A DNA stretch of 64,000 nt, from the IMG/VR virus record IMGVR_UViG_2939521961_000004; one strand, 5' to 3'. Numbering within the stretch: the stretch's first letter is position 1; every line of letters begins with the position of its first letter. The stretch is from a virus (taxonomy: Duplodnaviria; Heunggongvirae; Uroviricota; Caudoviricetes). Shown here one piece after another: positions 37,401-43,400 of this stretch. A program made the position numbers.

Positions 37401-40400
37401 ACCGCGGATACAGAGCACCGTTTCAGCGGTCTGCCGCCGGGGGAATACACCCTGACGGTCAGGGCGATTAACAGTTATGGCCAGCAGGGGGAACCGGCCA
37501 CCACCACGTTCAGGATTAATGCACCTGCGGTACCCGCCACGATTGAGCTGACACCGGGCTATTTTCAGATAACAGCGGTCCCGCGTCTTGCGGTGTATGA
37601 CCCGACGGTACAGTTTGAGTTCTGGTTTTCGGAGACAAAAATCGCAGATACATCTCAGGTGGAAACCTCTGCCCGTTATCTGGGGACCGGCAGTCAGTGG
37701 AGTGTATCCGGCCCGCACATTAAGCCCGGGAAGGATTTCTGGTTTTACGTGCGCAGCGTCAACCTGGTGGGGAAATCTGCGTTTGTGGAAGCCAGTGGCC
37801 GGGCCAGCAATGATGCAGAAGGGTATCTGGGGCTGTTTCGGGAAAAAATAGGAAAACTGCATCTGGCTCAGGGGCTGTGGGAGCTGATAGACAACAGCCA
37901 GCTTGCGGATGAGATGGCGGAGATGAAGACCTCCATCACCGAAACCCGCAATGAAATCACACAGACGGTCAGTAAAACGCTGGAGGACCAGAGCGCCACC
38001 ATACAGCAGATACAGCGCGTGCAGAAGGACACAAATGATGACCTTGCTGCACTTTACATGCTGAAGGTACAGAAAACAAAAAATGGCATACCCTATGTTG
38101 CCGGTATTGGAGCGGGGATTGAGGATACTGATGGCCAGCCCCTGAGCAACATACTGCTGCTGGCTGACCGTATTGCGATGATTAACCCGGAGGACGGCAA
38201 CAGCACGCCGTTATTTGTGGCGCAGGGGAATCAGTTGTTCATGAACGATGTGTTCCTGAAGCGGCTGTTTGCGGCGAGTATCACGTCATCCGGCAACCCC
38301 CCGACGTTTTCCCTGACGCCGGAAGGGAAGCTGACAGCCAGGAACGCGGATATCAGCGGAGCAATTACCGCGAATACCGGCACGCTCAATAATGTCACCA
38401 TTAACGAGAACTGTGTCATCAGAGGGAAACTGTCTGCAAACCAGATTGAAGGCGACCTGGTGAAGACGGTGGGGAAAGCCTTTCCCCGGAATAACAGTTA
38501 TGCCAGCGGGACGGTAACCGTCACAGTTTACGATGACCAGGGATTCGACCGGCAGATTATCATTCCCCCGGTGCTGTTTCGCGGGACGAAACACCAGAAT
38601 TTCAACAGCCCGAATCAGCAGTCGTACTGGTATTCCACCTGTAAGCTGCAGGTGCTGAAGAACGGGGTTGAGATTTTCCATGAACCGGCAACGGATGTCA
38701 GCCGGGTGTTCTCATCGGTGATAGATATGCCGGCAGGGCGGGGTCATGTCACCCTGACGTTTAATGTGTCGTCGGCCGGTGCGAACAACTGGACGCCGAC
38801 AACGTACATCAGTGATTTACTGGTTGTGGTCATGAAAAAATCCACGGCAGGGATCAGTATCAGCTGACGGTTTATTAACCCGGACGGGCACCTCAGGAGG
38901 TGCCTTTTTTATTGACTGAAAACAAAGAGGTAATCATGCGGCATTTATACGCAACGATATTATTGTTTACTACCCTGCTGGCAGGAATTGCCTTTCCTGC
39001 ACAGGCTGAAAGCGGACACGGTGCATTTTCCGTGGGATATGCTCAGGTTCACCCGGGCGGCGTACCGGCATTGTCCGGTACCGGTGCGCGTGCAGGTGAT
39101 TTAAAAGGGATTAATGTGAAATACCGTTATGAGTTCACGGATCACCTGGGCGGCATTGTCGCGCTGAGTTATGCATCGGTGAAGAAAAGTGACACGATGA
39201 AGACGGGTGAAAATACCTTCCATTATGAAAGCCTGCGCGGTCGTTATGTCAGTCTGATGGCCGGCCCTGTCTGGCAGCTCAGTGAGCGGGTCAGTCTCTA
39301 TGGCATGGCCGGGATGGCGTACACCCGCTGGTCTGACAGTGTTCAGGATTACCGGCGTGATGAAGTGAAACCGGGGTATGTGAAGGAGACCACCACCGCC
39401 AGTGATGGCCATACTGCGCGTCATCTGTCGCCGGCCTGGAATGCCGGGATTCAGTTCAGTCCCGTAGAGACGGTGGTTATTGACCTTGCTTATGAAGGTT
39501 CCGCCAGTGGCGACTGGCGCACTGACGGCTTCATCGTGGGTATCGGCTATAAATTCTGATTAGCCAGGTAACACAGTGTTATGACAGCCCGCCGGTTCAG
39601 GCGGGCTTTTTTGTGGGGTGAATATGGCAGTAAAGATTTCAGGTGTACTGAAAGACGGCACAGGAAAACCGGTAGAGAACTGTACCATTCAACTGAAAGC
39701 CAGACGGACCAGCAGCACGGTGGTGGTGAACACGGTGGCCTCTGAAAATCCGGATGAAGCCGGTCGTTACAGCATGGACGTTGAGTACGGTCAGTACAGC
39801 GTCATTCTGTTGGTGGAAGGATTCCCGCCGTCACATGCCGGGACCATCACCGTGTATGAAGATTCTCAACCGGGGACGCTGAATGATTTTCTCGGTGCCA
39901 TGTCGGAGGATGACGTCCGTCCGGAGGCACTGCGTCGTTTTGAACTGATGGTGGAAGAAGCAGCGCGTCACGCAGAGGAGGCGAAGAAGAATGCCGGAGA
40001 AGCAGAGACGTCCGCGAGGAATGCCGGCATATCAGCCAGTAAGGCGGAAGCGAGCGCCGCAAATGCTGATACTTCAGCAGAGGATGCATCGGAGTCAGCC
40101 CGGCAGGCGGCAGAAAGTGCAGCCGCTGCAAAGCAGTCAGAGGAGGCGTCCTCGTCCTCGGCCTCTGCGGCCGCTCAAAAAGCCAGTGAGTCATTACAAA
40201 GTGCAGCAGAAGCTGAATTGTCAAGAAAGACGGCAGAAAGTGCAGCCGGTAATGCAGCCAGGGATGCAACGACCGCAACAGAAAAAGCCCGGGAGTCAGC
40301 AGAAAGCGCACAGTCAGCGGAACAAAGCAGGATAGCGGCGGAAGAGGCCGTAAACCGAATCCCCACCGTGGTGGGACCTCCCGGGCCAAAGGGGGAACAG

Positions 40401-43400
40401 GGGCCCGCGGGTCCTCAGGGGCCGAAGGGTGATAAGGGAGAGCGCGGTGACACCGGCCCTGTCGGGGCAACCGGTGAACGGGGACCGGCAGGTGATGCTG
40501 GTCCGGCAGGCCCGCAGGGGCCGAAAGGTGACAGGGGAGAGCGGGGAGAGACCGGTCTGACGGGAAATGCAGGTCCACAGGGTCCAAAGGGAGATACCGG
40601 TGCGGCAGGCCCGGCAGGCCCACAGGGACCGAAAGGAGAAACAGGTGCGGCTGGCCCGGTGGGGGCAACCGGACCTCAGGGGCCGAAGGGCGACCCGGGG
40701 GAGGCACAAATACGGTTCCGTCTGGGGCCGGGAAACATTATTGAGACAAACAGCAATGGCTGGTTCCCGGATACAGATGGCGCACTCATCACCGGACTGA
40801 CCTTTCTTGACCCCAAAGATGCCACACGGGTTCAGGGTTTTTTTCAGCATTTGCAGGTCAGGTTTGGTGACGGGCCGTGGCAGGATGTCAAGGGGCTGGA
40901 TGAAGTGGGCAGTGATACAGGCAGAACAGGAGAATGACATGAATATACTAAAAAAACTTATGCAGCGTCTGTGTGGTTGCGGAAAGCATGATGGCCGTGA
41001 ACACGTGCAGTCGCTTACAGCACAGCTGCGACTGGGACCGGCAGACATTCTGGAGTCCGATGAGAATGGCATTATCCCGGAGCAGGCCAGGGTAATCACG
41101 CAGGTGGTGATACTGGATGCGGATAAAAAGCAGATACAGTGTGTGGTAAGACCGCTGCAAATCCTGCGTGCTGACGGGACGTGGGAAAATATTGGCGGAA
41201 TGAAATAGCCGACAGCTTCACAAAAACCGGAGTCCGGCTCCGGTTTTTGTTGGTTAGATGTAATCTGACAGATACCTGTATAAATAACCGGTAACTGTCA
41301 GGTCAGAGCTAATACAGGTAATTATATTATAATCACGAGCGCTTAGATGTATTAATACCATGCTCTGCAAGATGCTGCATCAGACGCTGAGCCACATCAG
41401 GCAGAGGTCTTGATTGTTCATTTTGTACCGGCGGCGTTGGCGCAGGCCAGTTAGGTGCCGGAGGAATATATTCAGCCATATTCCGGGCTGGTTGAATGCC
41501 ATGCTCTGCAAGATGCTGCATCAGACGCTGAGCCACATCAGGCAGAGGTCTTGATTGTTCATTTTGTACTGGCGGTGGTGGCGCAGGCCAGTTAGGTGCC
41601 GGAGGAATATGTTCAGCCATATTCCGGGCTGGTTGAATGCCATGCTCTGCAAGATGCTGCATCAGACGCTGAGCCACATCAGGCAGAGGTCTTGATTGTT
41701 CATTTTGTACTGGCGGTGGTGGCGCAGGCCAGTTAGGTGCCGGAGGAATATGTTCAGCCATATTCCGGGCTGGTTGAATGCCATGCTCTGCAAGATGCTG
41801 CACCAGACGCTGAGCCACATCAGGTAGAGGCCGATGTAAAGCGTTTTTTTCTATACTTGACTGAGTATAAGATGTGGGACGTTGAAGTCCTGATTCTGTA
41901 TAAGAATTTTTTACCTTAAAAATAGTTGTTGCACTGGCAGGACTGTTGCTGGGAGAAAAAGGTGAGCTGGTTTTTACCGTGTTAGGTGTGCTTTTGTGCT
42001 GCGAGACAGTGAAGGTACTGCTGCGTATAGCACTTGATATACTGCGAGGAAGGCTGGAAAAAAAAGAATTAATGCTATTTATCATATAGATAACCTTATA
42101 AGAGCTTTATTGGATAGTCTTATTTATCCGTTTACATGAAATCTACCTTTTGTGAAATTCTCGTCAATATTTTACTCAAAATGATCGGCTGTAGGAATAA
42201 ACTATTTGATATTATTACGTTTTTAGGGTTGTTTTCAATCAGCTATAGATAGGGCTTGGCGCCAGAATGGAGAATATTTAACGAGGAATAGAAGCTTTGT
42301 ATCAGACGGGCTTCCCTAAATAGAGAAGTTAAATAATCAGGATGATGCTAATGAATATCAGGGACAAGGTGAGTGTCTTCATGTTCAGTGAAACAGGGTG
42401 TCACAAAAAAGATTGGGGGGGGCTAGAGCCTTCTGCACGAAAATAGTGATGCGACAGATCTGAGATAGCTTTGTATCCTTCTGCCTGGTTCAGGCCTGGA
42501 GCAGTCCATGTTTTACAAAAATACTCGGCAGCGTAACGTGTTGCAAGAGCGGCATCAGACGAGGAACCTGAGGTTCCGCTCATGACCGATAATCTCATCC
42601 GAATAAAAATATACCAATTGGTATACCAAGTTTATACCAAGAGCCAAAAAAGCAAAGGGGCTACCATTTGGTAACCCCTTGATTATTTGGCGGAAGCGCA
42701 GAGATTCGAACTCTGGAACCCTTTCGGGTCGCCGGTTTTCAAGACCGAAGAAAAACAAATAAAAATCAGTGCAATACGTGAAATTGCTGAAAAGTTAATC
42801 AAATTTAACACCAAGAAAAATCAAGGTATTAGGAAGTTGCTCATAGCTAGTATACCAAGTCTTTTTGCCAGAAATTTTTCTGGATTGTCTACTTGCTAAC
42901 CACGAGCGGCAAATCCAGTGTTGGTGTGATTTTTGTTTTACGATCGTAAATCAACACCTGATTTTCTGTTTTATGCCCGCTGAAAATTTGTTTGTCGCGA
43001 CTGCTGCCTTCGTAATCTGAGATCCCCTTGGCTTTTATGTCGTGAAAATTGCACCCGAACGGAACGCCAACTTTTTGCTCGGCTGCGCGTTTAGCCTGAT
43101 TCCACCAGTTATTCAGCGTTTTAGCTATGACTTTCCCGCCTTTGGTTGTATTGATCACATATTCGCATGTACAGGAAGATACATTTCGGGCTAACTGGAT
43201 CGCTGTACGTAATCGCGGTGACCATTCCTTGATTTGTTTGGTGCCGGTTTTGTTTTGCTCAATGTAGATCCCTTTATCCATAATATCCTGCCATTTCAAC
43301 TCAAGCACATCACCGAGTCTTGCCGCACAGAGATAGGAAATCTCCATTGCAATGCGTAACTGTGGAATTGCTTCCGCATATATCGCCGCATACTGTTCAT

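Follow-up and report, generated by a model that had tools for sequence, protein, structure and literature searches.

A collagen-like side tail fibre of the EPclA type and its small knob-type companion gene in a Caudoviricetes genome

Introduction

A short tail fibre gene that lacks the usual assembly partner may be the remnant of a longer gene or a complete fibre of a different kind, and the small open reading frame (ORF) that follows such a gene may be a partner, a relic or something else. This question is raised by a locus in the IMG/VR virus record IMGVR_UViG_2939521961_000004 (Duplodnaviria; Heunggongvirae; Uroviricota; Caudoviricetes), of which a stretch of 64,000 nucleotides (nt), hereafter the window, was analysed. 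An earlier reading of the sequence alone (the original prediction) had noted a short Stf-like fibre and an 89-amino acid (aa) ORF at positions 39624-41208, and both the position and the reading frames were right, with the fibre at 39624-40937 and the 89-aa ORF at 40939-41208. We conclude that the fibre gene is an ordinary member of the EPclA type, which is very common and has been characterised before, that the ORF is its usual companion, and that the finding is as such already known. Taken jointly, it is highly probable that the fibre is a complete side fibre of the EPclA class and that the small ORF is an expressed paralogue of its C-terminal PfC domain.

Domain architecture of the side tail fibre

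The fibre gene and its four domains are located as follows:

39624-40937, plus strand: side tail fibre gene, EPclA type, 437 aa plus stop
39624-40022, plus strand: PfN, Stf-type N-terminal anchor (collar), aa 1-133 (Pfam PF08400, E 6e-69)
40023-40373, plus strand: PCoil, Ala/Ser/Glu-rich low-complexity segment, aa 134-250, expected to form a trimeric coiled coil
40374-40706, plus strand: collagen domain, 37 uninterrupted Gly-X-Y triplets, aa 251-361 (111 aa; PF01391, E 4e-18)
40710-40901, plus strand: PfC, C-terminal knob, aa 363-426 (64 aa), followed by an 11-aa tail (PF06820, E 5e-35)

The frame contains no internal stops, and a GTG at 39618 would add 2 aa. The predicted lambda-like Stf N-terminus is borne out by the PF08400 match as well as by the similarity of aa 1-93 to the solved collar domain of the Ur-lambda Stf (PDB 9E7M/9MGH, chain 9e7m_Ta; E 2e-51). 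Residues 101-250 include 47 Ala, 24 Glu and 23 Ser. The Gly-X-Y run is long and uninterrupted as originally described, but it comprises 37 triplets instead of the estimated 33 or so. Pro is found in the X position of 18 triplets. The length of the run is far above chance expectation, and among PDB entries it is similar to collagen chains (E 1e-70). Due to the GGN and CCN codons, the collagen-coding DNA forms a local peak in GC content (0.63-0.69). The short C-terminal domain seen behind the collagen turned out to be the intact 64-aa PfC. Besides PF08400, PF01391 and PF06820, the Pfam scan of the fibre gave solely a weak CarboxypepD_reg match, with neither Pf2 (PF03406) nor a gp37-like distal region.

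Two long ORFs lie antisense over the collagen DNA, at 39847-40707 (minus strand, 286 aa) and 40314-41099 (minus strand, 261 aa). They are read here as by-products of the GGN/CCN codon composition. The GenBank record of phage phi24B annotates an equivalent antisense ORF as hypothetical protein vb_24B_37c.

A complete fibre of the EPclA class

The same architecture has been described for EPclA (enterohaemorrhagic Escherichia coli [EHEC] prophage collagen-like protein A), which consists of PfN, a 116-aa PCoil, a 111-aa Col and PfC and has a total length of 437 aa (Ghosh et al. 2012, PMC3368898). EPclA was listed in CP-933K/M/O/P/R/U/V and Sp3/4/9/10/14/15, with examples such as ECs2717 (Sp14), ECs2941 (Sp15/VT1-Sakai) and Z3074 (CP-933U), and a length of 437 aa was given for 13 O157 copies (14 are so listed, one of them a defective ORF pair) (PMC3368898). 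The window fibre likewise has a PfN, a PCoil of about 116 aa, a single 111-aa collagen domain and a PfC, and its 97% identity to the VT1-Sakai copy is above the 90% expected between EPclA copies. Dimensions and place after J and lom are the same as well, and the differences from EPclA are allelic alone.

Recombinant EPclA is a trimer with a genuine collagen triple helix, which gives a collagen circular dichroism (CD) spectrum, melts at 42 C and appears under the electron microscope as a hinged dumbbell (PMC3368898). Its PCoil, in which Ala and Ser abound and Leu, Ile and Val are almost absent, is a trimeric alpha-helical domain that trimerises alone and melts at about 52 C, and the PfC is trimeric by itself and renucleates the triple helix after heating (PMC3368898). 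All this trimerisation and folding was obtained without a partner protein (PMC3368898). Based on the identical collagen domain and the near-identical PfC, the allele in the window would likewise be expected to form a trimer, to give the CD signature of collagen and to melt at about 42 C.

The comparison with fibres of O157 prophages, proposed together with the original prediction, places the window fibre in this class: it is identical to the VT1-Sakai (Sp15) copy (H0004) at 423 of 437 residues (97%) with zero gaps, and the collagen domains are 100% identical. Relative to O26:H11 strain 11368, the fibre gene has 4 single-nucleotide polymorphisms, of which one changes an amino acid (D396A), and no indel. 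A sequencing error in the repeat region, which had been named as a possible cause of truncation, thus finds no trace in either comparison. The exact 437-aa sequence is missing from a collection of 15 billion proteins. Its length is the mode among fibre ORFs in related viral contigs (88 of 124), with in-frame variants of 407, 434 and 440 aa also present and frameshifted copies forming a minority. All four domains are under purifying selection, with ratios of nonsynonymous to synonymous polymorphism (pN/pS) of 0.11 to 0.47. Of the suggestion that the fibre is truncated or alternative, the second half therefore holds, as it is a side fibre unlike the lambda-type Stf, and the first does not, given the modal length and the gap-free alignments. 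The absence of a recognisable tfa gene was also confirmed: a match to a Tfa-type family is lacking in both the fibre and the 89-aa protein, and what follows downstream is a convergent effector gene.

A conserved gene for a free-standing PfC domain

Immediately behind the fibre gene, the following features were found:

40928-40932, plus strand: AGGAG ribosome-binding site for the 89-aa ORF, within the last fibre codons (direct reading)
40939-41208, plus strand: 89-aa gene, encoding a 27-aa N-terminal part (predicted helix, then LCGCGKHD) and a free-standing PfC (PF06820, PHROG 576)
41020-41205, plus strand: free-standing PfC of the 89-aa gene, aa 28-89 (PF06820, E 1e-34, 119 bits against a cut-off of 25)

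The original prediction had treated this ORF as unknown and as standing in the place of tfa. Instead, it has a PF06820 domain of its own and encodes a paralogue of the fibre's C-terminal knob that stands alone, with 34% identity to the PfC of the fibre. The PHROG 576 match spans positions 1-89 of the 89 residues (E 2e-59), and the Pfam scan gave PF06820 as the sole match, with no tail fibre assembly family. The ATG lies 1 nt past the fibre TGA, which ends at 40937, and 6 nt downstream of the AGGAG; this junction, ACAGGAGAATGACATGAAT, is nearly invariant among 58 distinct related sequences. The exact 89-aa sequence occurs on at least 993 contigs, and 296 phage records carry it, siphoviruses and podoviruses alike.

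To describe linkage, the best 80 of 287 related viral contigs were taken, chosen on the fibre's PfC alone. In each of the 78 loci with downstream room, a single nucleotide separates the fibre stop from the ORF start; 75 of these ORFs are intact, one is cut by the contig end and two are frameshifted at an A7 run. In a second set chosen on the ORF itself, a fibre PfC ends 5 nt upstream in 74 of 77 informative loci; of the three exceptions, two carry the gene pair twice and the third has a PfC 2.7 kb upstream. The pN/pS of the 89-aa gene in the first set is 0.18 overall, 0.09 in the PfC part and 0.33 in the first 27 residues, the corresponding value of the fibre's PfC in these loci being 0.13. 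A value of 0.12 was obtained in the ORF-chosen set, a choice that biases it downwards.

The A7 run lies at 40950-40956, in codons 4-6 of the ORF, and the two frameshifted contigs of the 80 are L094 and L151; these frameshifts could be homopolymer sequencing errors or an on/off switch. A lipoprotein reading of the LCGC motif was rejected by eye, given the 13 residues before the Cys, the interspersed charges and the missing hydrophobic core. Besides the intact gene, some related loci have the 3' half of the ORF a second time, in degenerate form, about 0.7 kb further downstream and next to effector-like genes (L012, positions 5011-5151; also L015, L022, L045, L054, L066, L074 and L076), a copy that is absent from the window. 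This copy looks like the scar of a cargo insertion by recombination at the 3' end of the conserved segment described in the following section.

A mobile distal cassette

The 89-aa gene forms part of a larger unit, which ends with a hairpin:

40388-41252, plus strand: mobile cassette, comprising most of the collagen domain, the PfC, the 89-aa gene and the terminator (96% DNA identity to podovirus phi24B)
41220-41250, strand not assigned: hairpin between an A-run and a U-run (-22.7 kcal/mol, z -3.7; 0 of 200 shuffles fold as well)

In their N-terminal halves, the window and phi24B fibres share 37% identity, compared with 96% DNA identity in the cassette, and the cassette therefore moves as a unit between siphoviruses and podoviruses. 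The hairpin was found by folding and was not picked up by a consensus terminator scan after the 89-aa ORF; it is likely a bidirectional terminator for both the fibre cassette and the effector gene that converges on it.

The distal cassette is shared with EPclB, the lateral fibre of short-tailed Shiga toxin (Stx) phages (933W L0121, Sp5 ORF67, phi24B gp61), which is accompanied by counterparts of the 89-aa gene (Sp5 ORF68, 933W L0122 and phi24B 'gp59'), the phi24B copy being identical at 82 of 89 residues. EPclB differs in its length of 645 aa, in having two collagen domains separated by a Pf2-type repeat, and in its anchor, which binds the podovirus adaptor ring and not the tail tip of a siphovirus. 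The lambda Stf/Tfa system of Ur-lambda has a homologous collar domain, occupies the same gene position after lom and has the same expected role, that of an accessory side fibre speeding adsorption. Beyond about residue 133, on the other hand, lambda Stf is unrelated to the window fibre, which has a collagen shaft and a PfC knob in place of the Pf2 repeat, the gp37-like distal receptor-binding domain and tfa. The OmpC specificity of lambda Stf is not transferable to the window fibre.

Outside phages, Scl1/Scl2 of Streptococcus pyogenes and BclA of Bacillus anthracis likewise have a non-hydroxylated Gly-X-Y helix nucleated by a small trimerisation cap, and the BclA and Scl models match the Gly-X-Y region of the window fibre. 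This likeness ends at the collagen repeat, as the caps are unrelated and those proteins belong to the cell surface or the spore and are no virion parts. The PfC family itself is narrow: a profile built from both PfC types gave 83 hits among 1.84 billion representative proteins, nearly all of them fragments of two sequence types of E. coli, E. albertii or Citrobacter, which is too few for covariation or a deep alignment. One remote relative (P0146, 565 aa) has four tandem PfC-like modules (...VVVLDADAK...LQVRRADGTWMEIPALKG) with short Gly-X-Y runs in between and a longer collagen stretch behind them, and suggests that PfC-like units are trimer-registering nodes in other collagenous phage fibres.

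Expression and possible role of the 89-aa protein

In Sp5, the corresponding 89-aa ORF (ORF68, a fibre C-terminus ORF) was placed among the non-essential late genes (Mondal et al. 2016, PMC5155283). The supplementary proteomics table of a phi24B cryo-EM preprint lists two peptides from purified virions, VITQVVILDADKK and ADGTWENIGGMK, with 3 counts each. They are identical to residues 52-64 and 78-89 of the 89-aa ORF in the window. The peptide hit carries the label 'Spike or just gp59?'. Taken together, the linkage, the selection, the junction, the mobility of the cassette and the peptides show that the 89-aa gene is translated and selected, and that it is no silent relic.

For the fibre, we propose that three chains would assemble into one fibre, in which the N-terminal Stf-type domains would form the collar that presumably fixes it to the tail tip, as in Ur-lambda, where four trimeric fibres are held by a ring of twelve collar domains around the tail tip (PMC12617516). 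The Ala/Ser/Glu-rich segment is expected to form a trimeric coiled coil and the 37 Gly-X-Y triplets a collagen triple helix, i.e., a thin, hinged shaft. The 64-aa PfC domains would form a small distal knob that registers the three chains and nucleates the triple helix. This knob is also the presumed site of contact with the cell surface. Since PfC and the coiled coil trimerise autonomously, a Tfa-type chaperone is plausibly not needed, hence the lack of a tfa gene. The 89-aa gene is translationally coupled to the fibre gene, and its product is a PfC knob that has diverged since its duplication, preceded by a short N-terminal part with Cys and His.

As to its role, we tentatively suggest that the 89-aa protein forms a small PfC-type trimer and serves as a dispensable accessory of the fibre tip or of fibre assembly, an assignment that we hold somewhat short of an even chance. 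A more far-reaching and rather unlikely reading is that the duplication of the knob created a new kind of accessory, in which the free trimer would act either as the actual receptor-contacting tip, docking on the distal knob, or as a soluble decoy or cap that keeps fibres from sticking to each other or to cell debris. In that same reading, collagen, PfC and ORF89 would make up a self-contained, chaperone-free host-recognition module that moves between siphoviruses and podoviruses.

Several observations weigh against assigning such a role to the 89-aa protein and against the fibre model as a whole. The 89-aa peptides are scarce, with 3 counts each, whereas the most frequent of the fibre peptides shown have more than 150; the main text of the preprint is silent on them, and their low-level co-purification with phi24B virions may be contamination. 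Recombinant EPclA folds without the 89-aa protein (PMC3368898), and the phage remained viable after deletion of the Sp5 homologue (PMC5155283); any role of the protein is thus accessory. AlphaFold2 monomer models of the 89-aa protein were too poor to test an interaction, with a mean pLDDT (predicted local distance difference test) of 51 alone and 48 with a 19-row alignment of both PfC types and remote repeats, probably because PfC is an obligate trimer. As to a receptor of the PfC knob, the BamA assignment made for the related phi24B/933W fibre is now doubted. Besides, PfC is 96-100% identical across the best 80 of 287 related viral loci, which is unusually conserved for a receptor-binding tip, and it may be just a structural cap.

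Alternative explanations

The first alternative to an expressed accessory was proposed by Mondal et al. (PMC5155283), who found no frameshift signal and considered ORF68 perhaps a reservoir for fibre variation. The 89-aa ORF would then be a silent cassette, swapped by recombination into the fibre C-terminus to alter specificity, and two singleton chimeras in the databases (P0066 and P0121) could be taken as products of such exchange. We consider this improbable. The start codon, the ribosome-binding site and the full frame are kept in 75 of 78 loci, with a pN/pS of 0.09-0.33 over all parts, and 89-aa peptides were detected in the phi24B virion data. The two PfC-coding stretches share about 51% of DNA positions with a longest exact run of 7 nt, and hence offer no substrate for homologous exchange; a fibre ending in an ORF89-type knob was found in 0 of 153 informative loci.

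As regards the chimeras themselves, P0066 (locus L082, positions 4-291) joins a collagen segment to an ORF89-type PfC through the microhomology GGACCGGCAG, and P0121 joins the ORF89 N-terminus to a fibre-type PfC; each may be a real recombination or an assembly artefact. P0066 was rejected as proof of cassette swapping, since it starts at base 4 of a 3.3-kb draft contig and is possibly such an artefact. The short lengths of homologues were likewise dropped as evidence against ORF89-ended fibres, because the fibre PfC too listed only proteins of 134 aa or less, pointing to a length bias.

A second alternative, which we regard as still less probable, is that the ORF is translated mostly as an added C-terminus of the fibre, by a +1 frameshift or recoding near the stop, giving a minor isoform with tandem PfC knobs. 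The ORF frame is indeed open for at least 13 codons upstream of the ATG in all related sequences, the phi24B authors put such fusions in their search database and gave the hit the label 'Spike or just gp59?', and the remote relative P0146 has tandem PfC-like modules. The junction, however, has no slippery or prfB-like site, its AGGAG overlaps the last sense codons instead of lying ahead of a shift site, and the AGGAG, six nucleotides and ATG are the normal arrangement for starting a protein of its own. A signal for frameshifting was not found by Mondal et al. either (PMC5155283), and the parts of the phi24B supplement searched contain no junction peptide, although no search was aimed at one. 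A prfB-like +1 frameshift at GAA-TGA-C was considered as a specific candidate and rejected, as the AGGAG covers part of what would be the P-site codon and re-pairing of tRNA-Glu on AAU is not possible.

Directly behind the fibre gene, translationally coupled to it and strictly linked to PfC-ended fibres, the 89-aa gene also resembles the second gene of pairs such as stf-tfa or gp37-gp38, and its product could be an essential Tfa-like chaperone for fibre folding or trimerisation. This is very unlikely, considering that the protein has no Pfam match besides PF06820, that recombinant EPclA and PfC trimerise without it (PMC3368898), and that the Sp5 homologue was classed as non-essential (PMC5155283).

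There is very little to recommend the view that the collagen-like protein serves the bacterium, e.g., as an adhesin to host tissue like the streptococcal Scl proteins. This question was left open by Ghosh et al. (PMC3368898), and weak, sub-threshold matches to the models of the Scl and Lcl collagen-like adhesins were obtained. These are confined to the Gly-X-Y region (92 bits against a curated cut-off of 325), the N-terminus is a tail-tip collar domain in which no signal sequence was seen by eye, with no predictor run, and the gene lies within the late tail operon after J and lom. In addition, an antibody to the related Sp5 fibre labels tail ends (PMC5155283), and the phi24B fibre has been resolved on the virion.

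Least probable of all is a truncated or degenerate Stf that lost its distal half and tfa by deletion, frameshift or sequencing error: 437 aa is far below lambda Stf, whose distal coiled-coil domain alone reaches residue 525, and related loci include frameshifted or shortened copies of 236-392 aa, but the gap-free alignments already refute it, and 437 aa is the modal and published length of a frame that enters an intact PF06820 domain, has no indel relative to O26:H11 11368 or VT1-Sakai, is under purifying selection in all four domains and folds into a trimer as recombinant EPclA.

Significance

As the fibre class is biochemically characterised and the small ORF is already in print, the finding as stated adds nothing new. 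What is new here concerns the small gene, namely its adjacency, its intactness, the purifying selection, the mobility of the cassette and the phi24B virion peptides. This free-standing knob gene, being strictly linked, strongly conserved, translated and dispensable, is the one point worth pursuing, and its role could clarify host recognition by these phages. Fibres of the EPclA type sit on prophages that spread genes for Shiga toxin and type III effectors, and a TccP2/EspFU-like effector is found directly downstream in the window. The cassette could also give a compact, chaperone-free fibre module for engineering phage host range.

Genomic context

Upstream of the fibre gene lie J (35349-38867) and then a gene for an Ail/Lom protein, so that the fibre occupies the usual lambdoid slot after J and lom. 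A GC-rich hairpin with a T-run at 39586-39607 (plus strand), between lom and the fibre gene, resembles an intrinsic terminator inside the late operon, and antiterminated late transcription presumably reads through this site. On the other side, convergent with the fibre cassette, an EspF-repeat effector of 250 aa is encoded at 41333-42085 (minus strand; PF04806, E 5e-109), which is of the TccP2/EspFU type and has four proline-rich 47-aa repeats. Effector cargo commonly sits downstream of lambdoid tail fibre genes.

The closest DNA matches of the region are O26:H11 genomes, with 99.8% identity, and at least 80% of it is present in 693 of 5426 complete E. coli genomes. The O26:H11 annotation has the same gene order, i.e., J, lom, 'prophage tail fiber N-terminal domain-containing protein', 'phage tail fiber C-terminal domain-containing protein' and the EspF-repeat protein, and PGAP calls the identical fibre frame in O26:H11 11368.

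In the adjacent prophage, the tyrosine integrase is broken up into fragments at 42889-43467 and 44844-45221 (both minus strand), of which the first alone has an integrase-family match. Between them lies an element of the IS3 insertion sequence family, with an HTH_Tnp_1 ORF at 43591-43917 and an rve ORF at 43914-44804. The same integrase is annotated as frameshifted in O26:H11 11368, where it occurs without the insertion sequence.

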